A stretch of DNA of 32,000 bases from Polynucleobacter paneuropaeus (GTDB lineage: Bacteria > Pseudomonadota > Gammaproteobacteria > Burkholderiales > Burkholderiaceae), in the NCBI RefSeq assembly GCF_003261235.1, contig NZ_CP030085.1, positions 1,779,988 through 1,811,987 on the forward strand, written 5' to 3'. A program made the translations under genes and the position numbers. Each line of letters opens with the position of its first letter. The stretch's first letter is position 1. The notes beneath the pieces are model-generated. The model was not told the DNA's origin and searched no databases. It was given only the letters and a program-made list of their open reading frames with translations. Below are positions 567 to 21,819 of this stretch, one piece after another.

Positions 567-639
567 ATAGCCCAACAAGTGGGCTATCGTGATTCTTGGT
601 TGCACGGGGCATTATCAACTAAGGCATAGGATGTCTGAC
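567..639 (-). repeat. T-element copy 1 (degenerate): terminator hairpin ATAGCCCAACAAGTGGGCTAT + decayed tRNA-like core
   Basis: Hairpin 567-587 is identical to the other copies. The core TGGTTGCACGGGGCATTATCAACTAAGGCATAGGATG (597-633) aligns with the consensus TGGTGGCCCGGGGCGGAATCGACCAGGGCTGAGGATG with many substitutions. Confidence 0.7.
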
Positions 640-1242: not shown

Positions 1243-1315
1243 AAAATGCCCCGCACGAAGCAGAGCATTATTTAAATCTGGTGGCCCGGGGCAGTATCGA
1301 TTAGGGCCGAGAATG
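1243..1315 (-). repeat. T-element copy 2 (variant hairpin CCCCGCACGAAGCAGAG; core TGGTGGCCCGGGGCAGTATCGATTAGGGCCGAGAATG)
   Basis: Core at 1279-1315 ends 1 nt before the stop codon (1317-1319) of the minus-strand lipoprotein gene. Confidence 0.8.
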
Positions 1316-1867: not shown

Positions 1868-2261
1868 AAAAAACCACCCGAAGGTGGTTTTGGTGTTTCT
1901 TGGTGGCCCGGGGCGGAATCGAACCACCGACACAAGGATTTTCAACTCTGTCCCCCAGACTAAACTCCCGCTAGATCTCAAAAGGTTCACCCCACCCGAG
2001 TCTAACTTTGCGCACAAAACTTTCTTGGGTGTTTGTATGGGGTTGATTTAGTTGAGTTATTTTGACCCACGCAAGGATTAAATGTGAGTTTGGTGGTGTG
2101 ATGGGGATTTGACTGTCACAGGGATGTGATGTCCTTGTCGTGATCGGGATACCCTGCGCATGAAGTGTCCTTTTAAAGGACGTTACTTATTAATGCTGTA
2201 AGTGGATGATAGATTCCTTATATGCGCATATACGTATATATGAGAAGTCCTTTTAAAGGAC
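1868..2261 (-). repeat. Long composite repeat L1: terminator hairpin, tRNA-Phe 3'-half relic, ~220-nt conserved spacer with two TTGAC..CA(A/G)GGATG hairpin modules, two GTCCTTTTAAAGGAC palindromes
   Basis: From about 1893 to 2185 it aligns colinearly with 6752-7040 (L2), with scattered substitutions; the terminator hairpin differs between the two. Hairpin AACCACCCGAAGGTGGTT 1872-1889; palindromes 2167-2181 and 2247-2261. Confidence 0.85.
1901..1945 (-). pseudogene. tRNA-Phe(GAA) 3' half relic (anticodon loop to CCA), no 5' half
   Basis: The reverse complement TTGAAAATCCTTGTGTCGGTGGTTCGATTCCGCCCCGGGCCACCA matches the canonical tRNA-Phe layout: UUGAAAA loop, GUGUC variable loop, T arm, acceptor, ACCA. 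Upstream sequence cannot pair as an anticodon stem, D arm or 5' acceptor strand (no GGCCCGG). Confidence 0.8.
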
Positions 2262-2307
2262 ATCTCAGCGAGCGTCTATTAAAGCAACGGTTACTGCAAT
2301 AAAAGTT

Positions 2308-3117
2308 TTATACCGCCTTATATATTAGGCTCAGCGCAACTAAGAAAGCAAAAATAGCAAAGATTTGTTGCACTCTAGTGCCGCTGATCTTTCTCTCCAT
2401 TAGCTTTCCAAATACAAGCCCCACGAGTGATCCCAAAGCAAATAGGCTGGCAATCTCCACATTTAAATTGCCGGAAGCTAGAGATACAAGAGCCCCACCA
2501 GTAGAAACGATTGCAAGAACACCTAGGGAAGTGGCAACAATGGATTTCATTGGAAGGTCTGTAAATTTCTTTAGTGATGGCACTATGACAAATCCACCGC
2601 CAACTCCCAATAAGCCCGATAAGAAACCAGCAGTTAGGCCTGCATACATTAAAGACCTCGCACATGGCATAGTCCAAATCAATTTACTAATAGACAAATC
2701 AAGCTGACAAGGTGGAGGAGTTGGTGAAGTCGGCAAAGTGCCATGAATAGTCTTATGTGCTTGTATATAGAGCTGTACAGACACAAAAATTAAAATAGCA
2801 CTGAATAGAAGTAGCAATGGCGTATTGGGCACTTTGTTGGCAACCCATAGACCAATAGGGGACATGATTAAGCCAAAGAAAGACATGAAGATTGCCGCTT
2901 TATAGCGCAATACTTTTTCTTTAAGCCCAATAATTGCACCTACAGAAGCTGATAGCGCAATAGCGCATAGTGCAATTGGGCTTGCTTCAGCCACTGGTAA
3001 ATGAACAAAGAACACTAAAAGTGGCACGGAGAGTATGCCGCCGCCCGCCCCTGTAAGTCCCATTAAGATCCCAACAAATACACCTAGAGCTGGAATGATT
3101 AGCGTATGGGAATCCAT
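2308..3117 (-). CDS. TauE/SafE-family (DUF81) sulfite/organosulfonate exporter-type permease, copy 1
   Basis: 269-aa polytopic membrane ORF with the two Gly-rich repeats (GLTGAGGGIL, GLLGVGGGFV) typical of TauE/SafE. About 20 substitutions versus 28844..29653. Confidence 0.9.
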   Translation of the reverse strand: MDSHTLIIPALGVFVGILMGLTGAGGGILSVPLLVFFVHLPVAEASPIALCAIALSASVGAIIGLKEKVLRYKAAIFMSFFGLIMSPIGLWVANKVPNTPLLLLFSAILIFVSVQLYIQAHKTIHGTLPTSPTPPPCQLDLSISKLIWTMPCARSLMYAGLTAGFLSGLLGVGGGFVIVPSLKKFTDLPMKSIVATSLGVLAIVSTGGALVSLASGNLNVEIASLFALGSLVGLVFGKLMERKISGTRVQQIFAIFAFLVALSLIYKAV

Positions 3118-3183
3118 TAGTTGGCCTTCAAGTACAAGTTAATATTCATTGGCATTCGGGGTTTACTGATCCTACAATGAATC

Positions 3184-4059
3184 ATGGAAAATCAATATGC
3201 CCCAATCGTTAAAACCTTTTTTGATGCGCCCACTTGGACTTTTACTCATGTAGTTTATGAAAAGCCAGGTGTTCATTGTGCAGTTATTGACTCGGTGCTC
3301 AATTATGATCCCAAGTCAGGACGAACCAGCACTCATTCAGCAGATGAGGTAATTAAATTTATCCAAGAGCAAAGTCTGAAGGTTGAATGGATTTTAGAAA
3401 CTCATGCCCATGCAGACCATCTAACAGCAGGGTCATATATTAAGGAGCATCTTGGCGGCAAACTGGCAATCGGCAAGCACATTCAAGAGGTCCAGGCTGT
3501 TTTCAAAAACATTTTTCATTTAGAAGATGCATTTCAAGCCAACGGATCTCAATTTGACCATCTGATTGAAGCAAATGAGGAATTGCCTTTAGGTAAGCTA
3601 AAAATTCAATCTTTATTGGTGCCGGGACATACTCCAGCTTGTATGGCCTATGTAATAGGCGATACTATTTTTGTAGGTGACACCATGTTTATGCCTGATG
3701 TTGGTACGGCTAGATGTGATTTTCCTGGTGGTGATGCACATGTTTTATATCAATCAGTGAAGAAGATACTAAGTTTTCCAAATGAAACTAAGCTGTATAT
3801 GTGTCATGACTACCCACCAAACGAGCGGAAAATAGCCTACATGACAACGGTTGGTGAAGAGCGTCAACATAACATTCATATTCATGATGGCGTTTTAGAG
3901 CAAGACTTTGTAGCAATGAGAACAGCAAGAGACTCTACCTTAGAGATGCCCGTATTAATTTTGCCTGCAGTACAAGTAAATATTCGTGCAGGAGAATTTC
4001 CTCCCAAAGAAGCGAATGGCGTTTCTTACCTCAAGATTCCATTAAATTCTCTTGGGTAG
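3184..4059 (+). CDS. MBL-fold metallo-hydrolase (persulfide-dioxygenase/glyoxalase-II-like), copy 1
   Basis: 291-aa ORF with the THAHADH metal motif, then PGHT and CHDY. Paralog of 29720..30586. Divergent from the TauE gene. Confidence 0.85.
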   Translation: MENQYAPIVKTFFDAPTWTFTHVVYEKPGVHCAVIDSVLNYDPKSGRTSTHSADEVIKFIQEQSLKVEWILETHAHADHLTAGSYIKEHLGGKLAIGKHIQEVQAVFKNIFHLEDAFQANGSQFDHLIEANEELPLGKLKIQSLLVPGHTPACMAYVIGDTIFVGDTMFMPDVGTARCDFPGGDAHVLYQSVKKILSFPNETKLYMCHDYPPNERKIAYMTTVGEERQHNIHIHDGVLEQDFVAMRTARDSTLEMPVLILPAVQVNIRAGEFPPKEANGVSYLKIPLNSLG

Positions 4060-4074
4060 TTAATTGATCAAATT

Positions 4075-4308
4075 TTATTTTTGTATTAATAAATTAGCCA
4101 ATTGATCTACTACTTCTGACCACTCTGAGTCTTGGGCCTTAGCTTCAATCAAAAATGCTTTTTGATCTGGTGCCCAGTAAATGGCATCGGGCAGATTAGA
4201 CCCCGGCTTAAGTTGATGTCTTTCTATGTATCTCTCCATATGAATCTTTTGGGATGACAATCCTAACTGCTCAAAAAGCTCTTCCAAAGTTCTATTGTTC
4301 ATGCTCAT
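4075..4308 (-). CDS. DUF2789-like small protein
   Basis: 77-aa ORF. The pattern LEELFEQLGL...FIE..L......EA.FW...QA.FL.E....D.EW.E.VDQL matches my memory of DUF2789. Confidence 0.65.
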   Translation of the reverse strand: MSMNNRTLEELFEQLGLSSQKIHMERYIERHQLKPGSNLPDAIYWAPDQKAFLIEAKAQDSEWSEVVDQLANLLIQK

Positions 4309-4320
4309 CAGAATTCTCCT

Positions 4321-4398
4321 TCACCAGTATTTGAAGCGGGATCTCTCAACATCAACATCCCCACCTATAGCTCGCATCTTCATCTGACAATGTGGGCA
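4321..4398 (-). pseudogene. 3' remnant of a CxxC zinc-ribbon gene, paralog of 24979..25305
   Basis: The minus-strand translation TCPHCQMKMRAIGGDVDVERSRFKYW* aligns with ITCPHCQKPMRAIGADVDAKKPDKDF of the 108-aa protein. The frame is closed by a TAG just upstream, next to a C9 tract (4406-4414). Confidence 0.6.
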
Positions 4399-4458
4399 AG
4401 TCTAGCCCCCCCCCTTGCTAATATCAAAAATGAATGGTGGCGTTGTTTTAGTCCAACT

Positions 4459-4660
4459 TTGACCAACGCAGGGATGACAAAGCCCCAATAGATAAAGCGT
4501 CCTTTTAAAGGACGCTTCTAGTCAATGGGAAAGTTGGAAAACCAAGGGGAAATGGTGCCAGACCGCGGCCTACACTAGAGATTCTATGGACAACTTCTAA
4601 TATTCGGAGAATTCTTGGTGGCCCGGGGCGGAATCGACCAAGGCTAAGGATGCTCGATCC
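4459..4660 (-). repeat. Composite repeat (modules B-C-X-T) including T-element copy 4
   Basis: TTGACCAACGCAGGGATGACAAAGCCCC (4459-4486); 21-nt perfect palindrome AGCGTCCTTTTAAAGGACGCT (4496-4516); ~100-nt X module. The stretch from about 4499 to 4660 aligns with 26917-27079. tRNA-like core at 4616-4653. Confidence 0.85.
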
Positions 4661-4708: not shown

Positions 4709-5149
4709 ATGCCGACCTATACAGTGACTTACTCAAATACCAAACTAAGTGCCATACAAATGGAAGGTATTGCTCAGGCCATTACCAAAACCCACAATGA
4801 GTGCACTGGAGCGAATACCTACTTTGCTCAAGTGATATTTCAAGAAACTCCAAGTGGCAAACATTTCATGGGAGGTAAGCCCGTTCAAGATAGTCAAATC
4901 TTTCTACATGGACAAATACGAGCAGGGCGACCACCAGAACTCAAAGAAAAACTGATATTAGCAATGCGCGAAGCTTTAATTAAAAGCTCAGGACTCAGTA
5001 AAGATCAAATTTGGATTTATATTGTTGATCTAATTCCCGCCCAGATGATTGAGTATGGAGAAATTCTTCCACTATCAGGTAAAGAGAATGAATGGTTTGC
5101 CAGCTTATCAAGCGATCTTCAAGCAAAACTGAAAGCCTTAGAAAAATAG
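4709..5149 (+). CDS. Tautomerase-superfamily protein (cis-CaaD/Tautomerase_3-like)
   Basis: 146-aa ORF beginning MP (Pro-1 after Met removal is the catalytic residue of the family); size fits the long tautomerases. Its stop codon TAG lies inside the AAAATAGCCC arm region of the next hairpin. Confidence 0.6.
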   Translation: MPTYTVTYSNTKLSAIQMEGIAQAITKTHNECTGANTYFAQVIFQETPSGKHFMGGKPVQDSQIFLHGQIRAGRPPELKEKLILAMREALIKSSGLSKDQIWIYIVDLIPAQMIEYGEILPLSGKENEWFASLSSDLQAKLKALEK

Positions 5150-5214
5150 CCCAACAAGTGGGCTATTGAGATTCTTGGTGGCCCGGGGCGGAATCGACCA
5201 GGGCTGAGGATGCC
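5142..5214 (-). repeat. T-element copy 5
   Basis: Hairpin ATAGCCCAACAAGTGGGCTAT, then core TGGTGGCCCGGGGCGGAATCGACCAGGGCTGAGGATGCC at 5176-5214. It abuts the stop codon (5215-5217) of the minus-strand acyltransferase gene. Confidence 0.9.
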
Positions 5215-6066
5215 TTACTCTGTGGGAGCCAATTCTGCTCCAGCTGGTCTTTTGTAGCGGTTGTAAGACCACATATATTGATATGGCTTAGAAAGTATCA
5301 TCTCTTCAAAATAGTGGTTCATTTCTGTACAGGCATCGACTAGACAATCAGGAAATGCCTCATTCATCAATTGGCTCTTAATGAGCCAGCCCTTTCCTAA
5401 TCCCAGTCTTTCTGCGCTAACAAAAAGGATTGCTACATTTACTTGGCGAGCCAATTTAATTGGAAATGAGGTTGTATAAGCATATTGATTAAAAAATTTA
5501 GCCCACACCCCATCGCCAACGCTAGGCACCTGATCCGCCAATAGGCCAACTACCTCACCCTTTATTAAAGCTCGTTTAATCTGACGAACCCCGCTAATAT
5601 TTGCCTCAACAAAATCAATTTTGGAGTGTTTACGTGATTGAAGCATAAGCTCATTAACCCACCCCTTTCGAGCAGGCCTATACATTACCGTCGCTCTTGT
5701 ATGTTCGGCAAAAATACGAGGCACTATTTCAAAGCCTCCTAAATGTGAAGCAAGAACAATTAAGCCTTTGCCATTTTTGGATAGCTCAATAACTTGATCC
5801 AAGTTTTCAATAGTTACTTTATCAATGGAGGATTTTGGATGCCTCCAAATCCATAATGTGTCAGCAAACATCATTCCAGATTCGGCAGCCGCCCTCCACG
5901 GGGTTGATTTGAATCCCGAATAATGGGCTGCGCTCTGATGATTTTTATATAGGCGTCGTCGGTACCTGGCAGAAAACAAGTAAACCAATACACCCGTGCC
6001 AGCGCCAATAATTTGAATGGCTGCCAATGGAAGTGAGCTAAAGAGCCGCAATATGAAATACAACAT
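5215..6066 (-). CDS. LpxL/HtrB-family lipid A (late) acyltransferase-like protein
   Basis: 283-aa ORF with an N-terminal membrane anchor and the HLGGFE variant of the H(x)4E/D acyltransferase motif. Confidence 0.75.
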   Translation of the reverse strand: MLYFILRLFSSLPLAAIQIIGAGTGVLVYLFSARYRRRLYKNHQSAAHYSGFKSTPWRAAAESGMMFADTLWIWRHPKSSIDKVTIENLDQVIELSKNGKGLIVLASHLGGFEIVPRIFAEHTRATVMYRPARKGWVNELMLQSRKHSKIDFVEANISGVRQIKRALIKGEVVGLLADQVPSVGDGVWAKFFNQYAYTTSFPIKLARQVNVAILFVSAERLGLGKGWLIKSQLMNEAFPDCLVDACTEMNHYFEEMILSKPYQYMWSYNRYKRPAGAELAPTE

Positions 6067-6090
6067 CGGCCATTCTAGACGCTATTAATG

Positions 6091-6169
6091 AAAAAACCAC
6101 CCGAAGGTGGTTTTGGTGTTTCTTGGTGGCCCGGGGCGGAATCGACCAGGACCTAGGATGTCCAATCCT
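6091..6169 (-). repeat. T-element copy 6 (hairpin CCACCCGAAGGTGG variant)
   Basis: Core at 6124-6162. The small distal hairpin AGGATGTCCAATCCT (6155-6169) overlaps the stop codon of 6168..6683. Confidence 0.9.
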
Positions 6170-6683
6170 ATCTTCTATAACTATCTAATTTCTCGCTCAA
6201 AGCCTCAACCGCTTTAGTTAAAGCATAAAGCTCTTTTTCTTTCATCATGTCGATCTTTTGATGAAGTAATTCGATTTCTAGCTCTGCTTTTACATTGACT
6301 TCAAAGTCGTTATTGGCATGTTGCCGATCTATCTCCGAGAGTCTATTCTGACTCATCATGATTGCTGGCGCTGTATAAGCCGCTTGAAATGACAGCATTA
6401 AATTCAAAAGAATGAAAGGGTATGGGTCCCAAACATTGGCATTATTTACAGAGTTATAAGTAATCCAACCCAAAATAGAAACGCTTTGAATAATGATGAA
6501 CTTCCAAGAGCCCACCGTTCTTGCCACCGCATCCGATATTTTTTGCCCAACAGTCAATGGTCCTATGGGTTGCTCGACATGGGCTGTAATTTGGGTCGGC
6601 AGTCCTTGGCGATGCCTTTTTCTGTGGGCACGCAAAGCGTCTAAAACTTGAAGTTCTTGATTGGTAGGTATGGCTGTAGTCAT
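6168..6683 (-). CDS. DUF1003-family membrane protein
   Basis: 171-aa ORF with two TM helices, DPYPFILLNL..S.QAAYTAP.IMMSQNR and a C-terminal coiled coil, as in DUF1003. Confidence 0.75.
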   Translation of the reverse strand: MTTAIPTNQELQVLDALRAHRKRHRQGLPTQITAHVEQPIGPLTVGQKISDAVARTVGSWKFIIIQSVSILGWITYNSVNNANVWDPYPFILLNLMLSFQAAYTAPAIMMSQNRLSEIDRQHANNDFEVNVKAELEIELLHQKIDMMKEKELYALTKAVEALSEKLDSYRR

Positions 6684-6726
6684 GGGGCTCTCCTAGTGTG
6701 CTTTCTGTACTCTACGCCCATAAAAG

Positions 6727-7040
6727 AAAATAGCCCAACAAGTGGGCTATTGAGATTCTTGGTGGCCCGGGGCGGAATCGAACCACCGACACAAGGATTT
6801 TCAACTCTGTCCCCCAGACTAAACTCCCGCTAAATCTCAAAAGGTTCACCCCACCATAGGCTAACTTTGTGCACAAAACTTTCTTGGGTGTTTGTATGGG
6901 GTTGATTTGGTTGAATTATTTTGACCCACGCAAGGAGTGAGAGAAAGTTTGGTGGCGTAGTGGGGATTTGACTGACGCAAGGATGTGATGTCCTTGTCAT
7001 GTTCGGGGTACCCCACGCATGAAGCGTCCTTTAAAAGGAC
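6727..7040 (-). repeat. Long composite repeat L2 (paralog of 1868-2261)
   Basis: Hairpin 6730-6750, tRNA-like part from 6760, conserved spacer, GTCCTTTAAAAGGAC at 7026-7040, 3 nt before the stop of 7044..7406. Confidence 0.85.
6760..6804 (-). pseudogene. tRNA-Phe(GAA) 3' half relic, second copy
   Basis: Identical 45 nt to 1901-1945; the same lack of a 5' half. Confidence 0.8.
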
Positions 7041-7043
7041 GGG

Positions 7044-7406
7044 TTATTTAATTAGCGCCTCTACAAGACGCTCAAACATGTCATCTTCATTCATACCCGC
7101 ATAATCGCCAATTAGATGTTTAGTGATTGAACTTTCTATTTCATCCTTATCAGGCGTATTAAATAACGCTTCAACTTCATCCTCGTCATCAGCTACAACA
7201 TAGTGCCCAAGATTAAAGTCATAGATCTCCCCTTCGAATTCAACTTTTGAAGTAATGATCATTTCATCCCTTCCTTCGCGCAGGCCTGCTTTATTCCAGT
7301 AGAGAATTAAATTCTCATAAAAGTCATCTACTGATTTAACTTCAAATGAACCAAAGTAGCTGTCATTATTAAAATTTCTTGAGGCATGCAAATCAAATTT
7401 TTTCAT
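7044..7406 (-). CDS. Hypothetical acidic protein
   Basis: ORF 7044..7421. The ATG at 7404-7406 (MKKFDLH...) has GGAG about 10 nt upstream. Asp/Glu-rich. No family recognised. Confidence 0.6.
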   Translation of the reverse strand: MKKFDLHASRNFNNDSYFGSFEVKSVDDFYENLILYWNKAGLREGRDEMIITSKVEFEGEIYDFNLGHYVVADDEDEVEALFNTPDKDEIESSITKHLIGDYAGMNEDDMFERLVEALIK

Positions 7407-7644
7407 AGCAATTTTCTCCAAATATTTTTCTTATTCTATCTCCGCTAGATATCAATACTAGCTATACCTCTCATCCCGATAGTCACAAAAATCAATTTAG
7501 TCCAAAAGATTACTAAAAATTCCCTGAATTCATACCAAATCGCCTGATTTTCAAAATAAGAATTATTACGAATACGAGGTGGGGTTAGATTAGATCACCA
7601 GGGGCCGAGATCTCCACTGGCGTTGAAAATTGCGCGGTAAATTT

Positions 7645-8025
7645 TTAGGGCTTGCTACTGATCGGCTTAATAGCCTGTTGGTGATGCTGGCGATCTTTCT
7701 CGAGCTTTAATTGTTGTTTTGCTGAATCTACATTACGCCTAAGAGAGGTAACTCTTGCCTGCTTGAGATTCATTGTCTTAATAGGCTTAATCATTTTGAT
7801 AGCTTCATCTACAGTAAGCGCATCTTCATCCTCAGACAAGCTGGGGGCAGATGCCAAACTATTCATACCAAATTGATATTGCAGAATCAGCCGCGCATGG
7901 ATCTGACTATCGGCAAATACTGCTGTTTTAACTTGATGACCATTGATACGGACAAGGGCTTGATATTTGTTCATACAAATATTTATAGTCTCGGCGCCCC
8001 TCGGGTCTTTTAAATCATGTCGCAT
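7645..8025 (-). CDS. Hypothetical protein
   Basis: 126-aa ORF, co-oriented with its neighbours. No family recognised. Confidence 0.5.
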   Translation of the reverse strand: MRHDLKDPRGAETINICMNKYQALVRINGHQVKTAVFADSQIHARLILQYQFGMNSLASAPSLSEDEDALTVDEAIKMIKPIKTMNLKQARVTSLRRNVDSAKQQLKLEKDRQHHQQAIKPISSKP

Positions 8026-8257
8026 TCGGCTCTTTGCCAGCTGGCTCGCCTCTGCGATGGGGGCTTCAGCCCACCCATCTTTTCCAAAACGTGCACCACG
8101 TGGTGCTGGAAAATGATGGTCTTCTCTGTCCTAAGCGCACCAGCTGGTGCAGGACATTCGTCTTAGGCTTCGCTGGATCGGTGGCGACAGCTATCGCCAC
8201 CTATGGGGCTACCTTGCGGTGCGCCCCATATATAAATGTCCTTTAAAAGGACAAACA
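8026..8257. other. GC-rich, multi-hairpin intergenic element, possible structured RNA or ssDNA element
   Basis: 37 of 60 nt are G/C in 8041-8100 by hand count, against an AT-rich background. Six consecutive palindromes/hairpins (coordinates in findings), ending with GTCCTTTAAAAGGAC at 8238-8252. Confidence 0.5.
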
Positions 8258-8695
8258 TCAACGGCCAAAGCCCGCACGTACAGCGCCGCTTGCGGCTTCA
8301 ATTTGAGTATCAAGCTCACCCGCCTCTACGGCGACCTTAATAATCTCTAGGGCTTTAATCAGCTCCTCTGCTGAATTCACTTCTACAGCAGTTTTACCTT
8401 TAGCAAACTCAATGATCTTGGCACCATAGCGGATGTTTAAGCAAACTTTGCCATCCATAGCAACAAACCACCACTGACGAATACGCTTTTCATGTTCAAT
8501 GGTTTTACGTGCACCAGTGATGTCTTTAACTGTTTTGAATTTCTTAACAGTAAATGTGCCGCCTTCTTTGCTGGCTTTAGCTAACTGGATCTGCTCCCAG
8601 ACTTTGTTGGCTAATTTATTACGACGATGTAGTACTGGCGGTATAGCTGTTGGCTTTTTTGAATTAACCATTTTCAAACTGTTTAATGTGCTCAT
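8258..8695 (-). CDS. Hypothetical protein
   Basis: 145-aa ORF. No confident family assignment. Confidence 0.6.
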   Translation of the reverse strand: MSTLNSLKMVNSKKPTAIPPVLHRRNKLANKVWEQIQLAKASKEGGTFTVKKFKTVKDITGARKTIEHEKRIRQWWFVAMDGKVCLNIRYGAKIIEFAKGKTAVEVNSAEELIKALEIIKVAVEAGELDTQIEAASGAVRAGFGR

Positions 8696-9360
8696 CTTTT
8701 TCTCCTATAAGTTAATGGGCACACTTAATTTATTGTCAGAGTTTTTGGATGGACAACCTCTTTTTGCCAAAAGCCACAGAGATCTAATTATCTGACCCAG
8801 ATCTTGTCTCCTTTTATTAGGTTTCACTAAATAACTACGACGACAAAGCAGAAGAACGTTTTGTATGCCATAACTTATTACTACTGAAACAAGGGCAGTG
8901 ACACCCAGTCGTTATGTCACCCTAAAGCTGGACTTAGAGTCGCAGTCATGGAAATTCTGGGCGGTAGCAGAGACTTGTATTCACCATCCTTTACAGGACG
9001 CCATTAGCCTTGCTGACTAATATGAATCAAGTATATAAATTAGCACAAAGATCGTAAAACCTAGTTTTATGGATCACGAGAAAGCCCTGCTTACACAGCA
9101 ACTTTCAAACAAGACAAAGGTAGCCACTTATTGCTTTTGTCATTGTTGCGTTTCAAGCCGCACGTAAAAGGAGACAGCGAAACCGCCCTTCCCAAACTGG
9201 TTGTGCCCATAAGTGGTGTAGTAAAGAACTCAACAAAAGTCCTTTTCTATTACTGAGCCTGTTGCTTAAGGCTCAGTGTAGGTTGAATCTTCCAAAAGCT
9301 CTTAATAAGAAAAAGAAATGTGATGAGCGACAAGCGAAATCACAGGAGAACGTAGTTCGC

Positions 9361-9999
9361 CTATCTATCTATTTCAATAAATTCAATATTTCTTCCTGAT
9401 ATTGAATTAAATTCTTCAATACAAGTTTCTCTTAAATCCTCAATTCGCTCATCCATTTCTTGGAACGACATGATGTCATCCCTGCTTAAGTCAGTTTCTT
9501 CTTCTAATACATCATCAATATCGTCGATATCACATGACCAGCTATAGCTTAATTCTTCTTCCTCTTTGTGCTCAATGAATCCAAGTAATTTGTCAAAACA
9601 GACAATTCTTGTACCAATTAAATGGGGGTTATTGTCCTTATAATCCATCTGAACTACAACATCGGGATCTATGATTGAAGCGCACTTAGCAATATGATCT
9701 TGTAACTTTTCAGGGGCGATATTTTTACTTTCAAACTCAAGCTTATGGGTTGAACCAAAATACCAGCAACCATGAGCTCCAAGTAATTCACCACCATCAA
9801 ATTCATCCCCTTTACTCATGCCATAAAGTATTCTTGTGACAGCAGAATATCTCTCCGCATTTTTATCAAACGAGTATGTTCCAGAGCTATCTGTATTTTT
9901 ATCGAAATCATTCTTAAATCTTCGGATAATTTCTTTTTCTAATTCACGAATTTTTTCATTGCCATAAAAAGTAAACGTGCTTTCTACAGGTGTAGACAT
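9361..9999 (-). CDS. Hypothetical highly acidic protein
   Basis: 212-aa ORF. The C-terminal third is very Asp/Glu-rich (DIDDIDDVLEEETDLSRDD...). Confidence 0.6.
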   Translation of the reverse strand: MSTPVESTFTFYGNEKIRELEKEIIRRFKNDFDKNTDSSGTYSFDKNAERYSAVTRILYGMSKGDEFDGGELLGAHGCWYFGSTHKLEFESKNIAPEKLQDHIAKCASIIDPDVVVQMDYKDNNPHLIGTRIVCFDKLLGFIEHKEEEELSYSWSCDIDDIDDVLEEETDLSRDDIMSFQEMDERIEDLRETCIEEFNSISGRNIEFIEIDR

Positions 10000-10316
10000 T
10001 TTTCACCTCAAATTAAATTTGTTTAAGTAACTATAGCTAATTTTTATAACAACAGAATAGTTTTAAGCGGAAATCTTTCAAGCTCGCTGGCTTGGGTGGC
10101 TGAGCCAAAATTTAAAACGCTTATAGGTCGTTTTAAAAGGTCATCAAAATATCGTGGCGAAAATGCCACGATAAATATAAGAGAACAGTACTACTCTTAT
10201 ATTTTTGCCTAACTCATTGATAAAAAAGTACTTCTTTTTCAGCCATTTTCGGTTGCCCAAACCGAATCTAAGAAAACATACTGTAGTTCTGTATTTAATA
10301 TATTTGAGGAGAAAGT

Positions 10317-10883
10317 ATGTCACAAGCTAGAGTTTTAAATCCACAGGAACTACGCCGAGTTTTAGACCATGTTGCTACACGTAGGCATTCAGCACGTAAT
10401 CGCGCTATGTTGCTGTTAACGCACTACGCGGGTATGCGAGTCGCTGAAGTAGCCGCACTACGCATAAACGACGTTTTAAACGGCGACAGTACTATTAAGG
10501 GTGAAGTGCGCTTAATGCCCGAACAAACCAAGGGCAAACACCCTCGTACTGTTTACTTAAATGAACGGATGCAAAAGGAGCTGGCGCAGTACATCAAAGT
10601 AATCAAAATCAAAGATGCAACGAAACCCTTGTTTTATACACAGAAACAGGCGGGGTTCTCATCCAACTCTTTGACCCAGTACTTCTTTTACCTTTATCGC
10701 AATGTCGGCCTAGCTGGATGTAGCTCACATTCAGGTAGAAGGTCTTTTTTAACTGGACTTGCCAATAAAGGCACAGCGATTCATATATTGAAATCTCTCG
10801 CTGGGCACCGCAACATCAGCACCACCGCCACCTATCTCTACAGCAGTCCCGATCAACTCAAAGCCGCAGTAGAGCTAATTTAA
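10317..10883 (+). CDS. Small tyrosine recombinase (catalytic domain only, FimB/FimE-size)
   Basis: 188-aa ORF with GGAG upstream. Catalytic signature: AGMRVAEV (Arg), HSGRRSF (His-x-x-Arg), LAGHRNISTTATYLY (His...Tyr). Confidence 0.85.
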   Translation: MSQARVLNPQELRRVLDHVATRRHSARNRAMLLLTHYAGMRVAEVAALRINDVLNGDSTIKGEVRLMPEQTKGKHPRTVYLNERMQKELAQYIKVIKIKDATKPLFYTQKQAGFSSNSLTQYFFYLYRNVGLAGCSSHSGRRSFLTGLANKGTAIHILKSLAGHRNISTTATYLYSSPDQLKAAVELI

Positions 10884-11222
10884 CTATTTGGAGAAGTCGC
10901 TAAACACTTCTCCAGTGTATTTGTCATTAACCCTTGCTGTCTTTAAGTTGACAGTAAAAGCCAATCCTCTTGTGGCAAGTCGATGACCAAACCACTTACA
11001 CAGAACCTCAACTCTAGTTGCATTGTTCTTTCCATCAAGAATAAGTACTTGATCACCAAGCAAGAAAGTGCCACTAAATGTTGAACGCCTATATTTCGCA
11101 TCGGTAACATCAATTACACGAGCATTCTTAACCTTTATAGGCTTTATAGGCTTCGCTAATTTTGTAGTGTGAGGAATATCACTTTCCTCTTCCCACACTG
11201 GTGCTTTGTAATAGAAATCCAT
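10884..11222 (-). CDS. Hypothetical protein
   Basis: 112-aa ORF convergent with the recombinase. No family recognised. Confidence 0.5.
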   Translation of the reverse strand: MDFYYKAPVWEEESDIPHTTKLAKPIKPIKVKNARVIDVTDAKYRRSTFSGTFLLGDQVLILDGKNNATRVEVLCKWFGHRLATRGLAFTVNLKTARVNDKYTGEVFSDFSK

Positions 11223-11285
11223 ATAACCCTCATATTTGCTTACAAGTTGTTATTAGGATATCAAATTTGTCCTTTTAAAGGGCAT

Positions 11286-12050
11286 TTACTGTGCGGGGAA
11301 TTTACCTAGAACCACATTCTCAATTATTAGCTCGGCACCACTTAGATACCTTTTTACGCTTGAGCCCATAGTGTTCCTCCTTGCGGCATTTATAGCTGGA
11401 AAGAGCTTTGGAGAAGTCATTGCTTTGGGGATTAAAGTTAAGCTCTCACCTATCTTCCAATTGGGCACTTTTGGCTTCTTTCCTTTGTGCTTCATGTATT
11501 CATCATATACATCTAAGGTTTTCTCTAAATTTTGTACTGTGTAATTTCTAGCCAATTGATACTTGGCATTACTTTTAGTTGATCCCTTAGTTGGTCTACC
11601 ACGTCCTGCCGTATGGCGCTCTTTTAATAGTTGTGCAAAACGACTTTGTAAATACCTTTTACTAGACGTTAGTGGTACAGCAAGAATCATCACCTCATCT
11701 TTGCTCCAACCATCTTGCCACTGTGACTTATCTTCCAGCTCTGTTAATTTCATTGCCCCATAGTTTTCGGCGAATAAATTCGGTCCTCGCTCGTCCTTAG
11801 TCCACCACTTGTGAAAGTCATCATCTCTCACATCTCCAAAGTCTTTATATAGCTCGGCATGTTTTCCTTTGCCGCCACGCTCACAACACTCTAAATATTC
11901 TTGATTACGGCGTAAGAACTGCCACCACCAGTAATAAGGACTGCGCTTTTGATATCCAAGTGGCAGTCTTTTGTTTTTTGTACCAAATATAGGGTACGGA
12001 GCTAGGAATCTTCTTGGCATTTTCTTGGCATGTAAATTGCAGGAATTCAT
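11286..12050 (-). CDS. Hypothetical regulator-like protein; the WWWQFLRRNxEY motif resembles the proteobacterial transcriptional-regulator-like domain DUF6499 seen in integrative elements
   Basis: 254-aa ORF. The motif YYWWWQFLRRNQEYLE is recalled from DUF6499/DUF2285-type ICE regulators (memory-based, unverified). Confidence 0.6.
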   Translation of the reverse strand: MNSCNLHAKKMPRRFLAPYPIFGTKNKRLPLGYQKRSPYYWWWQFLRRNQEYLECCERGGKGKHAELYKDFGDVRDDDFHKWWTKDERGPNLFAENYGAMKLTELEDKSQWQDGWSKDEVMILAVPLTSSKRYLQSRFAQLLKERHTAGRGRPTKGSTKSNAKYQLARNYTVQNLEKTLDVYDEYMKHKGKKPKVPNWKIGESLTLIPKAMTSPKLFPAINAARRNTMGSSVKRYLSGAELIIENVVLGKFPAQ

Positions 12051-12156
12051 AATCGTATCAGAAATATACCCGTTCTGCGTTCTAATTTAATTATGGCCAA
12101 GCGGTTAAATTTCTTAACAAGCAGTCATATTTCTTAATACAGAAAGAGAGTTAAAA

Positions 12157-12939
12157 ATGAATGCATTATTAAACGCAGTAGATACAACCCCTGTTACAAC
12201 AAACGTCCTTTTAAAGGACACAGCCAAAGTAACTAACGTTGCTGTTGGTACTACCGTTGCCCTTACTAATATGGAAGCAAATCGTATTAACTGGGAACAA
12301 GGTGCCTACAGAACAAGTAATCAAGCCTTATATGCAGTATTAGGCGATTGCTTGGCTTTTTGTGGTGATATGACACTTCCAGAAGCTAAACAACGTAGCG
12401 CATCTTTAGAGTCTTTCTATAAGGATCGCGGCTACACATATAAAAAGGATCTCCCATTAGCGACACGTGTAGTACGTGCAGTTTTTGGATCAAGAGATCG
12501 CCGTCGTATTAGCACCTACTCTTTGGTTATTCGTCAGGCAATGAAAGAGAAAGTTTTGATAGCTGACTTTTCAGCGTGGGTGGAAGAGCGTGGCGGGGTT
12601 CAAGAGATCAGTCTTGGCAAGAGCGCTACTTACATCAAGCCTGCGGACAAAGCTGAGATTGCTAAAAGCAATCTAAAAGGCAAAACACCGATTGGCTATG
12701 CCAAGTCTGAATTGCTCTCACATGTTGCTGATGCTCAGTACCTAGGCGATATGTGCGTACTTTTAGCAGAGCAACAAGCTGATGGCAGTTTTGGTGTCTA
12801 TGCAGTTTTGCGTCAAGACGGACTGGTTAAGTCTGCCTTTACCTCTTTGTATGCGGTTGGCAAAGAGCTTGAAGACAAAGCCAAAGCAGAGATCAAAGCG
12901 GCAAATGATGCTGATGGTGCGGTTGCTAAATCAGCTTAA
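12157..12939 (+). CDS. Hypothetical protein
   Basis: 260-aa ORF with an AAGAGAG-type RBS. It contains an in-frame copy of the GTCCTTTTAAAGGAC palindrome at 12205-12219 (encodes VLLKD). Confidence 0.65.
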   Translation: MNALLNAVDTTPVTTNVLLKDTAKVTNVAVGTTVALTNMEANRINWEQGAYRTSNQALYAVLGDCLAFCGDMTLPEAKQRSASLESFYKDRGYTYKKDLPLATRVVRAVFGSRDRRRISTYSLVIRQAMKEKVLIADFSAWVEERGGVQEISLGKSATYIKPADKAEIAKSNLKGKTPIGYAKSELLSHVADAQYLGDMCVLLAEQQADGSFGVYAVLRQDGLVKSAFTSLYAVGKELEDKAKAEIKAANDADGAVAKSA

Positions 12940-12957
12940 TTAATCAAGGGGAATGTT

Positions 12958-13677
12958 ATGAGCGTTCCCCATTCTTATTTGAAAGGAATACAAATGTTTA
13001 CGAAAGGAAATAATCATGAGCCTAAAACAATTGATGACATCATCTTTGGAAATAATGAATCTAAATTGCGGATTGAAGATATTGTCTCGGGTGCCGAAGA
13101 ATTACCTTACAGCGGCAAATCAGCCATTCTTTTATACGGAGTCTTTGGGACAGGCAAAACCACACTGGCCAAAATGCTACCTAACCACATTGAATATGGC
13201 AAAACTAAAGAAGAGTTAGTTTGGGATCCAGTGTTTATAGGCTGTCAGCAGGGCTTTAATGGGCCACAGCTAATGACTAAGATTGATGCAATCATGACAA
13301 CAATGTCGCTAAACGTCAGCGGCCTTCATTACTTCATCCTTGATGAGGTGGATAACTTAACCAAGCTGGCGCAACAAAGTTTGAAAACGGCCTTGAATAC
13401 GACATTAGGTGTATTTGTGCTCACAACAAACAATGTTTCTCAATTAGATAAGGGCATGTTAGATCGTTGCATCTTAGTTGAGATGAATGCGGCAAATCCG
13501 AATGCTTATTTGGATATTGCCAAATCCATTGCCAATGAAACAGGAGTCACTTTATCTAATGATGAGCTTCTACCAACTATTCAGGCCGCCAATGGATCAT
13601 TTCGTAACTTGTTTCATAACGTGGGGCGCTTGGCTAGACGTAAGGCGGAAAAGGTGCCACCTAATGCTATCTACTAA
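12958..13677 (+). CDS. AAA+ ATPase, clamp-loader/RFC-like
   Basis: 239-aa ORF. Walker A GVFGTGKTT, Walker B ILDEVDNL followed by AQQSLKTALN (RFC box V-like), and LDRCILVEM (SRC-motif-like). Confidence 0.8.
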   Translation: MSVPHSYLKGIQMFTKGNNHEPKTIDDIIFGNNESKLRIEDIVSGAEELPYSGKSAILLYGVFGTGKTTLAKMLPNHIEYGKTKEELVWDPVFIGCQQGFNGPQLMTKIDAIMTTMSLNVSGLHYFILDEVDNLTKLAQQSLKTALNTTLGVFVLTTNNVSQLDKGMLDRCILVEMNAANPNAYLDIAKSIANETGVTLSNDELLPTIQAANGSFRNLFHNVGRLARRKAEKVPPNAIY

Positions 13678-13687
13678 GGAGGGAACT

Positions 13688-13873
13688 ATGGAATCAGCAT
13701 GGATTGTCTTTCTTGCAGACGATGATGAATTTGTTATTGAAGTCTTTGATAACGAAAAGGCGGCCATTGATTGCTTTAAGTACCACATTAGCTCTGCACC
13801 ATCAGCCACCTACATCGTTAGAATAGACCCAACAAACTTTCAGTCTACCTTTACCGTCCCACTTGAAGAGTAA
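13688..13873 (+). CDS. Small hypothetical protein
   Basis: ATG at 13688 preceded by AAGGAGG. It is the 3' part of ORF 13487..13873, whose upstream part overlaps the ATPase gene out of frame. Confidence 0.55.
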   Translation: MESAWIVFLADDDEFVIEVFDNEKAAIDCFKYHISSAPSATYIVRIDPTNFQSTFTVPLEE

Positions 13874-13880
13874 AGTTAAT

Positions 13881-13905
13881 AGCCCACTTCCGAGTGGGCT
13901 TTTTT
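13881..13905 (+). terminator. Rho-independent terminator
   Basis: AGCCCACT-TCCG-AGTGGGCT followed by TTTTT. Lies between the convergent genes 13688..13873 and 13904..15178. Confidence 0.8.
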
Positions 13906-15178
13906 ATGCCAACCTATCCGCCGCCATCGTTGCCGTCAACTTGCTGTAATGACGATCAATCATGGCGGCACTATTTCCCATCTGCTTAGATAGCGTATGT
14001 ATATCAGTCTTGTTCTCTAGTAGCTCCAAAGTAGCGTAGGTATGACGCAAGGAATATAAAGTACGCATCTGTCCGTCGTGACTCAATCCCAAGCCACTAT
14101 CTCGCATCAATCGCTTAAATGCGCCATCAATCCGCATGGGCTGGTGTCCGTTGGCAAAGACAAAGATCCGCTCGGGGCAACGAGTCTCAAACAATCTGTC
14201 AAATGGGATGTCGTACACAGCCTTTTGCCTACTGTGTAATCGCTTGAGAACGTCTACAGCTTTATGTTTGGCAATGAGCCAACGCCCTCCTGTCTTGCCA
14301 TCCACCCAAATACGTAGGTATTTCTTATCTCCCTGCGTGTGCCACTCAATATTATTCCAGCAGATATTCAGTGCTTCAGTGCCATGCCGCATGCCTGTGT
14401 ATAAGAGCATTTCCACATAATCTCGCAGTAGCGGACGAGTCTCATGCTCAATCTCTAATCGGCCTTGTTTAATCCATGGCTCCATAAACTCCAACAAGCG
14501 ATCAATCTCTTCACGAGTGAATGCTGGGCGGGTTTTACCCTTCTGCCCTCTAGCTGTGAGTTTGGGAATAGCTACTCGCTCGCTGATCCAGCCTTTGCTA
14601 ATAGCCACAAGCTGTAACTTAGTCCAAGCACTGGCAAAGTTCATTAGGGTGCTGGCACGAGGGATCTTATTCATCTGCCTATTACGCCAAACCTCAAACT
14701 CATGCACGTCTGTATAAGTTATTTCTTCTAGTCTTTTGTCCTGAAAGTAAGGTAGAAAGTATTTTTCAATACAGGTGATGTAGCTACCGTAGACACTTTT
14801 GCCTATACCCACATCCAAGTCTTGCCGCATTGAGTAGAGAGTGGCGTGTGCAATTTCTGCAAACGTGGGCGACTTTTGTGCAAGCCCCAGTCTTTGGCGA
14901 AATCTGGTTTCATCGTAAAGATCACAAGCCATTCGTACAGCGTGTTCAATGCTGGCTTGGCGCGTGGTCTGGCGATGCCATGAGCCATCTTGCAATCTAA
15001 AACGGCAATGCCAAAGTGGGCTTCCGGGTCTGCGGTGGATAACTACCTCGCCATCACGCAAGTAAAGCTCTGTGGGTTCGGCGTATTTGAGCTGGCTTAG
15101 GGCTGTGGGTTGGGATTCTTGGAGTGGTGAGGAGATTACTTCTAGGTGACTTTCAGGTACTTTGATTACCTTAGTCAC
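13904..15178 (-). CDS. int: Tyrosine integrase (phage-integrase family, P4-like size)
   Basis: 424-aa ORF. LYTGMRHGTE (Arg), LRHTYATLEL (box II His-x-x-Arg region), IDRHYSKL (catalytic Tyr). Confidence 0.9.
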   Translation of the reverse strand: MTKVIKVPESHLEVISSPLQESQPTALSQLKYAEPTELYLRDGEVVIHRRPGSPLWHCRFRLQDGSWHRQTTRQASIEHAVRMACDLYDETRFRQRLGLAQKSPTFAEIAHATLYSMRQDLDVGIGKSVYGSYITCIEKYFLPYFQDKRLEEITYTDVHEFEVWRNRQMNKIPRASTLMNFASAWTKLQLVAISKGWISERVAIPKLTARGQKGKTRPAFTREEIDRLLEFMEPWIKQGRLEIEHETRPLLRDYVEMLLYTGMRHGTEALNICWNNIEWHTQGDKKYLRIWVDGKTGGRWLIAKHKAVDVLKRLHSRQKAVYDIPFDRLFETRCPERIFVFANGHQPMRIDGAFKRLMRDSGLGLSHDGQMRTLYSLRHTYATLELLENKTDIHTLSKQMGNSAAMIDRHYSKLTATMAADRLA

Positions 15179-15318
15179 TTTGTAGGTGGCGTGCTGTTGT
15201 CATACAGCTATTTTATTTTCAGCTTTTGTTTTGAGCAACCTTAAAAAGAAACGCCTTCCTCTTTTATTAATTATGTTTACCTCGTAGTTTTGGCCACATT
15301 GAATGATATTCATTTTGG

Positions 15319-17829: not shown

Positions 17830-17830
17830 A

Positions 17831-19342: not shown

Positions 19343-19997
19343 AATAACTTGTTAAAGGATAGTCCTTTACTGGTGTTGGAATGAAAACTCCATCACCCAT
19401 ATCAGAAAACAATGGCAATGATTCAATTTCTGCATGGATTAGCAATCCTTCAAATGAATAATCGCGTCGCTTTACGAACCCCTCTGTTGCTGGTGACCAC
19501 TCTGAAAATACAATTGGTTTTGGTGGATTCGACGCTGTTTGAAACGTCAATGCATCACCCCAAACAATATTCTTACTCAAAATAAACTCTATTGAGTTAA
19601 TGCATTCTTCTCTTTTATTACTCTTGTATGATTTATCATAAAATTCAATGAATTTATTGAGCAATCTTTTTCTGCAATCAACAACATTATCTTCAAGAAT
19701 GTCTATGCCATAAAGGCTTGAAACGGCAATAATCGAATAGCATTCAAACTCAGTTTGACTCTTTTTGTATCTTGACTCCACTGTCGCCAATTTTCTAGTT
19801 AATATTTCTATCAAAAAGTTACCATGCCCACATGCTGACTCTAAAAATCTTGAGTCAATTCGTTCTGTTTCATGCTTGACTAAATCAAGCATTGCGTTTA
19901 CCTCACGAGGGTTTGTATAAACCTCACCATGGTTAGTGACCCGATTTCTAGAAACAACTTGGGAATCGAGCGGTTCCTGTTTTAACTGGTTACTCAT
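19320..19997 (-). CDS. Methyltransferase-like protein lacking a canonical NPPY (degenerate N-lobe paralog)
   Basis: 225 aa. VYTNPREVNAMLDL (motif X), FLESACGHGNFL (motif I), LYGIDI (II), WGDAL (III), and only SNPPKP where motif IV is expected. Overlaps the next ORF by 23 nt in another frame. Confidence 0.7.
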   Translation of the reverse strand: MSNQLKQEPLDSQVVSRNRVTNHGEVYTNPREVNAMLDLVKHETERIDSRFLESACGHGNFLIEILTRKLATVESRYKKSQTEFECYSIIAVSSLYGIDILEDNVVDCRKRLLNKFIEFYDKSYKSNKREECINSIEFILSKNIVWGDALTFQTASNPPKPIVFSEWSPATEGFVKRRDYSFEGLLIHAEIESLPLFSDMGDGVFIPTPVKDYPLTSYFGVTNER

Positions 19998-20110
19998 TTA
20001 TATTTTTTTATTTCTCTAATTTGCCTTCTACAGCCTTATTGTCTAGTCAGGCTAACCTTGTTTAATGCTTTAACTATCATTTTGCGTTATTTGGCACGTG
20101 TAATCAATTT

Positions 20111-20127
20111 TGTCGTTTTAAACGACA
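20111..20127. repeat. 17-nt perfect palindrome TGTCGTTTTAAACGACA
   Basis: Lies in the divergent intergenic region between 19997 and 20203. The same 17-mer occurs at 21803-21819, 23517-23533 and 26818-26834. Confidence 0.9.
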
Positions 20128-20202
20128 TTATTAGTTAAGGGGCTCATCTAGTGAGCTTCTGGTCTCATATTCTGACTATTCGCCATAACTTAGGGGATAG
20201 TC

Positions 20203-21800: not shown

Positions 21801-21802
21801 TT

Positions 21803-21819
21803 TGTCGTTTTAAACGACA
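21803..21819. repeat. 17-nt palindrome TGTCGTTTTAAACGACA
   Basis: Starts 3 nt after the WYL gene stop codon. Confidence 0.9.

Follow-up and report, generated by a model that had tools for sequence, protein, structure and literature searches.

The whole 32-kilobase (kb) stretch of Polynucleobacter paneuropaeus DNA analysed here (contig NZ_CP030085.1, positions 1,779,988 to 1,811,987; hereafter the window, 32,000 nucleotides (nt) long) is a tandem array of insertions downstream of a tRNA-Phe gene, that is, a tRNA-linked additive genomic island. The tRNA-Phe fragments that punctuate it, 45 nt and 22-26 nt long, are the junction scars of two kinds of site-specific insertion, by which about a dozen small gene cassettes and one 15-kb element with an integrase have accumulated. 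We proposed, with a probability of roughly three in four, that the array was built behind a single tRNA-Phe by crossover at two positions: at the anticodon loop by int424, a tyrosine integrase encoded by the integrative element E1 (6805-21977), and at the T-loop/T-stem by a second recombinase. Related loci are referred to below by three-digit L numbers, and L1 and L2 denote the two long tRNA copies of the window.

Thirteen co-oriented copies of the 3' end of Polynucleobacter tRNA-Phe were found in the window, two long and eleven short. A probe of 22-25 nt, taken from the 3' part of the 1901-1945 sequence (minus-strand reading TTGAAAATCCTTGTGTCGGTGGTTCGATTCCGCCCCGGGCCACCA), gave 10-12 matches, on the plus strand only, where 0 were expected from 100 shuffles; the thirteenth copy, a degenerate one, lay at about 597-618. 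Copy lengths were measured as strict identity runs against a reference tRNA-Phe, GGCCTGGTAGCTCAGTCGGTAGAGCAGAGGATTGAAAATCCTTGTGTCGGTGGTTCGATTCCGCCCCGGGCCACCA, which was identical in 7 of the 8 loci of related genomes in which the gene was called by ARAGORN. The eighth, from a Burkholderiaceae isolate, differed in one anticodon-loop base, and 27 intact copies were seen in all. This reference agreed with the cores that an earlier inspection of the window (the sequence-only reading) had assigned to tRNA-Phe. Both long copies, which that reading had described as 45 nt from the anticodon loop to CCA, were found to be strictly identical to tRNA-Phe positions 32-76, from the first base of the UUGAAAA loop. 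Its count of eleven short copies stood as well, while its lengths of 24-26 nt did not: the short copies measured 22 nt (positions 55-76) or 26 nt (positions 51-76), and three were degenerate. Identity from the T-loop/T-stem to the 3' end was thus exact at eight sites and degenerate at three more (31972, 1279 and 597), and the 22-nt copies became 25/26 matches once a deletion of T54 was allowed. The copies were located as follows:

597-618, minus strand: degenerate short copy, 6 mismatches in 22, type-B hairpin and arm kept
1279-1300, minus strand: degenerate short copy, 2 mismatches in 22
1868-1900, minus strand: type A terminator-type hairpin and AGAA linker, directly 3' of the L1 block
1901-1945, minus strand: long copy L1, tRNA-Phe 32-76, 45-nt strict identity, distal attR-type junction of the unit 1946-4615
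4616-4637, minus strand: short copy, 22 nt, with arm CCAAGGCTAAGGATG, bounding the tautomerase cassette (4709-5149)
5176-5197, minus strand: short copy, 22 nt, bounding the lipid A acyltransferase cassette (5215-6066)
6124-6145, minus strand: short copy, 22 nt, bounding the DUF1003 cassette (6168-6683)
6760-6804, minus strand: long copy L2, tRNA-Phe 32-76, distal junction of element E1
21978-22003, minus strand: short copy, 26 nt, tRNA-proximal end of E1, its 5' arm belonging to the neighbouring cupredoxin cassette
23669-23694, minus strand: short copy, 26 nt, strict identity
27035-27060, minus strand: short copy, 26 nt, strict identity
30747-30768, minus strand: short copy, 22 nt, bounding the DUF3106 cassette (30791-31222)
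31326-31347, minus strand: short copy, 22 nt, bounding the BrnT/BrnA toxin-antitoxin cassette
31972-31993, minus strand: short copy at the window edge, one mismatch; this variant site is also found before BrnT in L002 and L003

The long copies did not belong to an intact tRNA that had been misread. No intact tRNA was called by ARAGORN in the window, Rfam matched no tRNA or group I intron in 1800-2400, not even with the threshold relaxed to E<=10, and nowhere in the window was a tRNA-Phe 5' half found. At the gathering score the sole Rfam match in the whole window was the Polynucleobacter-1 RNA (8893-9032). Since all copies lie on the minus strand, the intact tRNA-Phe must lie to the right of coordinate 32000. 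The array also extends leftward, as the first 450 bases repeat, at 92.7% identity, the beginning of the molybdoenzyme gene (28187-28636). In L115, L145, L008, L011, L052 and L082 the arrays begin at an intact tRNA-Phe; the window stops short of it.

Read in tRNA orientation, the junctions showed one order: element arm, tRNA block, AGAA and a terminator-type hairpin, the last being of five types that are common to non-adjacent sites. Such an anatomy is expected of attR-type junctions when one tRNA gene has repeatedly received insertions in its 3' part. The hairpin at 1868-1900 forms the proximal arm of the older unit that comes next; it was terminator-like on both strands, and the type A hairpin occurred also at 6124.

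The long class was linked to a recombinase lineage through E1. The region 6805-21977 is an integrative element, and two recombinase genes lie inside it:

6805-21977, minus strand: element E1, 15.2 kb (Pfam, PHROGs, NCBIfam)
13904-15178, minus strand: int424, 424-amino-acid (aa) tyrosine integrase with an N-terminal extension, in the same orientation as the tRNA fragments; phrog_1 integrase, E=7e-31
10317-10883, plus strand: rec188, 188-aa tyrosine recombinase, catalytic domain only, Xer-like; PF00589, E=6e-26

The E1 backbone comprises small open reading frames (ORFs), DUF6641, the Polynucleobacter-1 RNA, rec188, three ORFs of 112, 254 and 260 aa that gave no family match, a clamp-loader-like AAA+ ATPase and int424, to which a variable defence cargo is added (a T5orf172/ResIII helicase, an Eco57I-type methylase and a WYL regulator). 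This backbone recurred in L006, L125-129, L135 (P. paneuropaeus), L145 and L147. In the scan of the window proteins int424 had no Pfam match. It was recognised as an integrase by its PHROG integrase match, by 44% identity to a protein with a weak PF00589 hit and by its 2830 database relatives, many of which carry a precomputed PF00589 assignment or are named 'integrase' by the source.

Every element with the int424/rec188 backbone and a visible distal end (8 of 8: the window, L135, L125-128, L145, L092, L112, L030 and L147) ended in a block starting at position 32. In L147 a minimal relative, consisting of an integrase 64% identical to int424, rec188 and DUF6641, was inserted in tRNA-Lys(UUU): the integrase directly follows the intact tRNA-Lys, and the far end is a 45-nt tRNA-Lys block from the first base of the CUUUUAA loop. 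The position-32 boundary therefore follows the recombinase lineage and not the tRNA sequence or chance conservation. Relatives of int424 were also found directly 3' of an intact tRNA-Phe in L130-134. A whole array was seen on a single contig in L145, in the order core genes, intact tRNA-Phe, two short cassettes, E1 and a last 45-nt block; here E1 is the oldest insertion and both cassettes are later arrivals. Another P. paneuropaeus genome (GCA_018704975.1, L135) was 99.87% identical to window 5212-6804, and beyond the shared stretch it had one extra long-class unit of 4.8 kb, with a sulfatase and an amidohydrolase, and 45-nt blocks on both sides. The two strains thus differ by gain or loss of exactly one unit.

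The unit adjoining L1 has the same kind of junction and a small cargo, in which no recombinase gene was found:

2308-4059: cargo of the L1 unit, TauE sulfite exporter (2308-3117, minus strand) and metallo-beta-lactamase (MBL)-fold protein (3184-4059, plus strand), assigned by Pfam

Long-class units lacking an integrase were observed elsewhere too, in L112 and in the extra unit of L135.

Each long copy is accompanied by a conserved spacer, for which the sequence-only reading had given ~220 nt. Its extent was about 237 nt: positions 1897-2182 and 6756-7041 were 90.9% identical over 286 nt, made up of 45 nt of tRNA and the ~237-nt spacer. The spacer is the element-side arm of the long junction:

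1946-2184, minus strand: L1 long-class arm, about 237 nt, ending in hairpins H1 (2119-2141) and H2 (2167-2183)
6805-7043, minus strand: E1 long-class arm, homologous to the L1 arm

Homologous arms, 85-91% identical, stood beside position-32 junctions in L057, L019, L043 and L135, and a homologous arm was also present in L125; more distant subfamilies had the same arm layout. The arm always opens with a palindromic hairpin, GTC(C/G)TTTnAAA(G/C)GAC, and it probably carries accessory binding sites needed by a large arm-binding integrase. The symmetry of the palindrome was kept across subfamilies, GTCC..GGAC in some and GTCG..CGAC in others.

It was considered whether the long copies are instead a functional RNA, either a split, permuted or intron-containing tRNA-Phe or a structured small RNA encoded by the spacer. 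The conservation of the spacer and the terminator-like score of H2 on the plus strand would suit such a role, and so would the stem difference between L1 and L2 pointed out previously, which was indeed present: H1 reads ACAGGGA/TCCTTGT in L1 and has the A-U version in L2, a G.U to A-U change on the plus strand. However, the stem varied on one side only, with G.U in 5 and A-U in 2 of 7 sequences, and the single G.U/A-U difference is weak evidence of an RNA. The RNAalifold covariation term for the 7 homologues was only -1.25 kcal/mol, with few compensatory pairs, and the spacer gave no promoter match; a structured RNA in the spacer was therefore not supported. Together with the lack of a tRNA, 5' half or intron, and with the unrelated arm found beside the position-32 junction at tRNA-Lys in L147, this made a functional RNA extremely improbable.

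Separately, a double-hairpin module, TTGACnnnnCAGGGAT..ATCCC followed by GTCCTTTTAAAGGAC, which is the distal part of the long-class arm, was seen to recur in the window at 2119-2183, 6978-7042, 4459-4562, 23240-23364, 26855-26981 and 28735-28826, with H2 alone at 2249-2264. Besides its place in the arm, it adjoins the type-E hairpin at 4616 and at 27035, and two occurrences have no tRNA block.

The short copies have an arm of another kind. In the window this shared arm was CCAGGGCYGAGGATG, and its consensus in tRNA orientation was aGGaTtAGaCATCCTnGGCCCTGG(T), from 268 distinct sites in about 120 loci. The conserved arm reported earlier was thereby recovered; its description as different was not, as it proved to be tRNA-Phe positions 27-53 in diverged form: the AGGAT/ATCCT stem is kept, and the segment of the variable loop and T-stem is shortened. 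T54 was missing in 193 of the 268 sites, so the crossover that restores a working tRNA must lie 3' of T54. Because positions 32-53 of the short junctions are not tRNA sequence and T54 is mostly absent, the crossover was placed 3' of position 54, and a crossover at the anticodon loop cannot have produced these junctions.

The resemblance of the arm to the tRNA raises the alternative that short copies are old long junctions in which positions 32-53 have decayed, so that only one recombinase specificity ever acted. Within the arm AGGATTAGACATCCT matches AGGATTGAAAATCCT, after which comes the shortened variable-loop/T-stem segment, and the degenerate copies at 597 and 1279 prove that decay does happen. 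Yet one derived consensus, with the same 2-nt shortening, was shared by 268 distinct sites, 193 of them with the same T54 deletion, and such convergence is not expected of independent decay. Identity to the tRNA was perfect up to a sharp edge and dropped immediately beyond it, young cassettes (89-96% identical between genomes) already had the short arm, and only 6 of 353 copies had intermediate lengths of 27-44 nt. A single origin was consequently judged very unlikely.

These figures came from a scan with the exact short-class pattern over one genome per species, in which at least 120 stretches matched, nearly all from Polynucleobacter isolates or related freshwater metagenome-assembled genomes. 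The distribution of identity lengths was multimodal over 353 copies in 125 loci, which were fetched by the short-class pattern as 8-kb blocks, so that class frequencies are biased toward the short class: about 282 copies had 22-27 nt, about 34 had 45-51 nt, 4 had 59-64 nt and 27 were intact 76-nt genes. The position-32 boundary was found in 20 of about 37 long copies elsewhere, and the orientation of the copies was uniform within every locus. For 217 complete units the median length was 954 bp (10-90% range 567-2808 bp). The evidence for two crossover sublocations is good, and two recombinase specificities follow from it. At least two had been suggested for the window from its letters, and the two discrete junction classes, the long one of which tracks the int424 lineage, bear this out.

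Other kinds of junction were also noted in these loci. Those with 59-64 nt of identity (L076, L081, L118 and L034) start in the D-arm and have a common arm motif, GGCCAATAG. In L011 a promoter-bearing 5' fragment of tRNA-Phe (positions 1-38) at 1026-1063 lies 3.2 kb upstream of the intact gene (4302-4377), which indicates an insertion body upstream of the restored tRNA. A 13,065-nt entry of a virus collection (L140, IMGVR_UViG_3300025206_000016) has the same 45-nt tRNA-Phe block from position 32 at both ends; its integrase is not close to int424.

The short units behave as discrete mobile modules. Elsewhere the BrnT/BrnA cassette was found 89-96% identical, with 9 or more different neighbours upstream and 3 types of hairpin downstream. 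In L001 and L004 homology ended at the outer edges of both tRNA blocks (query positions 7 and 676), in L002 two consecutive cassettes were shared with the window and divergence began at the end of the third block (position 1258), and the DUF3106 cassette stood alone in L155. Only 22-26 nt are shared at several of these breaks, so site-specific exchange fits better than RecA-dependent recombination. The latter could nevertheless be the main agent of reshuffling, acting over block plus hairpin, for instance once foreign DNA has been taken up, if the site-specific step were confined to first entry. The five hairpin types at non-adjacent sites would provide, with the tRNA block, 60-95 nt of near-identity, and several homology breaks lay beyond the hairpin (query positions 715-720) and not at the block. 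In L001, L004, L158, L161, L162 and L163, on the other hand, homology ended at the 22-nt block or no more than 10 nt from it. On either side of the block the arms are unlike, which leaves too little identity for efficient exchange, and a conserved element-side arm would have no role. RecA-dependent recombination at shared hairpins may contribute; as the principal mechanism it is unlikely.

Nor do the small units look like remnants of full-size, integrase-bearing islands from which the mobility genes were deleted, an origin that has been put forward for degenerated elements of tycheposon islands. Streamlined genomes do delete quickly, and deletions inside the array are shown by the L1 unit and by the fused TauE/MBL-sulfite-oxidase unit 27035-30747, which keeps only the distal H1/H2 part of a long-type arm (28735-28826). 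Fragmented integrases and scattered partial tRNAs were described by Hackl et al. (10.1101/2020.12.28.424599). But not one integrase fragment occurred in 202 short units, most units are intact single genes with both arms, and identical small cassettes were met in many contexts with breaks at the tRNA block, so that the small unit itself is exchanged. An origin as remnants of complete islands is possible for some units and quite unlikely as the general explanation.

A mechanism of insertion at two positions of one tRNA gene was therefore favoured. Each insertion would restore tRNA-Phe, supply it with a terminator and push the displaced 3' part with the element arm deeper into the island; each repeat would then be an attR-type junction composed of element arm, tRNA block and the terminator hairpin that belongs to the older neighbour. 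E1-family elements with int424 would recombine within the anticodon loop or immediately 3' of it, leaving the 45-nt block (positions 32-76). L2 would be the junction of the resident E1, and L1 that of a 2.7-kb integrase-less derivative (TauE and MBL-fold protein) with the same arm, presumably moved in trans or formed by deletion. The integrase-less cassettes of ~1 kb would recombine 3' of position 54 and leave blocks of 22-26 nt, each bringing a conserved arm of ~25 nt and a terminator hairpin for the tRNA, and a second recombinase would act on them in trans. The anatomy of the junctions, the arms specific to each class, the tie of the long class to int424, the reshuffling of cassettes as modules and the difference of one unit between strains were all observed; the exact crossover sites, the function of the arms and the T-loop enzyme are inferred.

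Several observations weigh against this proposal. No recombinase of the T-loop class was found, so the T-loop half of the model is drawn from site anatomy: the 202 complete short units, 19 further metagenome loci and the longer contigs examined contained no tyrosine recombinase, and no integrase was found upstream of the tRNA in L008, L011, L052 and L082. The sampling bias toward the short class is a further point, and blocks of 8 kb would miss any larger short-class element that encodes its own integrase. No excised circle or empty site was observed; a search of metagenomes for a circular or tandem junction of the BrnT cassette gave 19 matches, all of them ordinary array junctions. The L1 unit has no integrase, and both mobilisation in trans and deletion are possible for it. 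The bases 5' of position 32 differ between the window (...GGGGGACAGAG) and L135 (...CGGAGAG), with integrases ~90% identical, so the core-proximal requirement at position 32 may be loose. Finally, homologous recombination over the 70-95 nt of shared block and hairpin could add to the reshuffling.

Some candidates were rejected in the course of these searches. An integrase beside a short copy in L050 was Xer-like and 38% identical to a likewise Xer-like ORF of L110 (PF00589 and a SAM-like N-terminal domain); as the L110 ORF was taken to be chromosomal, the L050 integrase is probably a flanking gene. Among viral contigs the short-class pattern had 0 matches and int424 no match, and the tRNA block alone retrieved unrelated prophage junctions.

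The short units may also be read as an integron-like cassette system on a tRNA gene, with a recombinase acting in trans, for which rec188 is the best candidate, and with E1 as a mobile platform. The composite site of ~60-95 nt would then consist of a pseudo-anticodon arm, the T-arm with the acceptor 3' end, and the terminator; cassettes would be captured at, and excised from, the T-loop of tRNA-Phe, and E1 would insert by int424 at the anticodon loop and fill the array by rec188. The order in L145, with E1 first and the cassettes later, fits such a platform, as a single case. rec188 matched the NCBIfam Xer and invertase models far under their cutoffs. The best 120 of its 4541 relatives were 86-97% identical and nearly all 188-228 aa long, a conservation that exceeds that of int424. 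Since both recombinase genes lie in one element, assigning one to each class is not simply possible. This reading was considered rather unlikely. A function of rec188 as an invertase was discarded, as no convincing inverted repeats were found in 6700-15400.

A second integrase subtype, 44% identical to int424, was observed in L115 (395-1991), L103 (1192-2815) and L020 (3995-5295). It is located 240-320 nt upstream of a full-length tRNA-Phe with its own TATAAT box, in divergent orientation, and a cassette array follows downstream. An integron-type layout with a resident integrase platform was considered for these loci and judged the less likely reading, since in L103 the integrase is part of the E1-type mobile backbone, in inverted orientation. 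More probably the integrase belongs to an element that has a complete tRNA within its attachment site; the visible sequence extends to contig ends close by, short of the far junction.

Within the E1 backbone the Polynucleobacter-1 RNA (RF01718) was detected wherever the region was visible, that is, in the window (8893-9032, plus strand) and five loci: L135 (8568-8706), L092 (2703-2838), L030 (1229-1366), L125 (9552-9692) and L126 (754-894). It usually lies between DUF6641 and rec188; in L125 and L126, which are one element type, it was ~310 nt upstream of the integrase. The segment from the E1 integrase to the tRNA-proximal end is a cargo slot with a different defence set in each copy: the T5orf172/ResIII helicase with the Eco57I-type methylase in the window (15319-19997), DUF6339 and a cytosine methylase in L135 (14745-19214), and a type I restriction system in L125 (1877-7724).

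Except for 6805-21977, the intervals between copies in the window contain one to a few ordinary cargo genes, and array genes occur on both strands. They encode TauE exporters, MBL-fold proteins, a tautomerase, a lipid A acyltransferase, DUF1003 and DUF3106 proteins, a cupredoxin, an FGE-sulfatase-type enzyme, an OmpA-domain protein, a sulfite-oxidase-like molybdoenzyme with cytochrome c and two toxin-antitoxin pairs. The latter, of the YoeB/YefM type and BrnT/BrnA, occupy one cassette each (664-1214 and 31380-31897). Two gene sets are duplicated: the TauE and MBL-fold pair (2309-4048 and 28845-30578, 85.7% identical) and the start of the sulfite-oxidase-like gene (1-450 and 28187-28636). In the right-hand duplicate both sets are fused in one unit; in the left-hand one they are separated by 3 tRNA blocks and 2 small cassettes.

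Bacteria of the genus Polynucleobacter rank among the most abundant in fresh water, and their ecology at the strain level has been ascribed to genomic islands. The locus shows the build-up of such an island at base-pair resolution, with one tRNA gene as the entry for at least two site-specific systems, the second of which would move single-gene cassettes, hundreds of kinds in all, that lack mobility genes. The junctions provide a searchable site signature for this cassette pool of toxin-antitoxins, transporters, redox enzymes and envelope genes. rec188 becomes a concrete candidate for the missing cassette recombinase, and the orphan Polynucleobacter-1 RNA motif is placed inside a mobile element.

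Integrase subfamilies reportedly use either the anticodon-loop or the T-loop sublocation of tRNA genes, as Williams is said to have described in NAR in 2002. The rule is restated in 10.1101/2020.11.02.365908. The present blocks agree with it, running from the anticodon loop or the T-loop to the CCA end, and the int424 lineage keeps the anticodon-loop sublocation on tRNA-Lys as on tRNA-Phe. In E1 the element that made the anticodon-loop junction carries its integrase, int424; the L1 unit does not. Unlike the known cases, both classes are interleaved here in one array at one tRNA, and the T-loop-class units have no integrase (202 complete short units, 19 further loci).

Additive flexible genomic islands were reportedly described by Lopez-Perez in 2013. 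Cassette arrays ending in partial tRNA repeats, called additive or tRNA-direct-repeat islands, are known from Ca. Actinomarinales (Lopez-Perez 2020, PMC7771536), and the same island type from Ca. Methylopumilus (Layoun 2024, PMC10872708). For Polynucleobacter itself, additive islands with gene cassettes near tRNAs are attributed to Hoetzinger 2017 in a passage of 10.1101/2022.03.25.485477. The array has in common with them variable small cassettes beside a tRNA, a partial-tRNA direct repeat for each and strain-variable content; arrays stand at an intact tRNA-Phe in related loci, and their content varies (L135, BrnT and DUF3106 cassettes). An element-side arm, a supplied terminator, two junction classes and a linked integrase lineage are not part of those accounts, the Polynucleobacter one being represented by the citing passage.

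Tycheposons of Prochlorococcus, in which stacked insertions with partial tRNAs are central to the model (10.1101/2020.12.28.424599), likewise have tRNA-specific tyrosine integrases, older insertions pushed inward, partial tRNAs and niche or defence cargo. A tycheposon, however, spans several kb and has its own integrase and, as a rule, a primase/helicase module; most units of the present array are ~1 kb and without mobility genes, and E1 has a clamp-loader-like AAA+ ATPase but no primase or helicase recognised in family scans of its backbone. With integrons the array shares tandem ~1-kb cassettes in one orientation, a conserved site for each, the lack of a recombinase in the cassettes and the presence of toxin-antitoxin cassettes. 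In contrast to integrons, the sites are tRNA-derived direct repeats and not attC hairpins, genes lie on both strands and the entry is a functional tRNA gene. An integron proper was rejected, as integron-integrase models scored 43 and 24 bits against cutoffs of 265 and 435 and no IntI was found; attC-type sites, which are imperfect inverted repeats folding as single strands, were rejected too, since the hairpin of the short arm pairs in only 53-80% of 268 sites and the sites are direct tRNA repeats. Xer-dependent modules (IMEX, pdif) use a dif-like 28-bp site with XerC and XerD arms, and they were set aside because inspection of block and arm revealed no dif-like sequence. The kind of island is thus already known and is resolved unusually cleanly here; new in it are the element-side arms, the supplied terminators, the two classes at one tRNA and the tie of one class to an integrase lineage.

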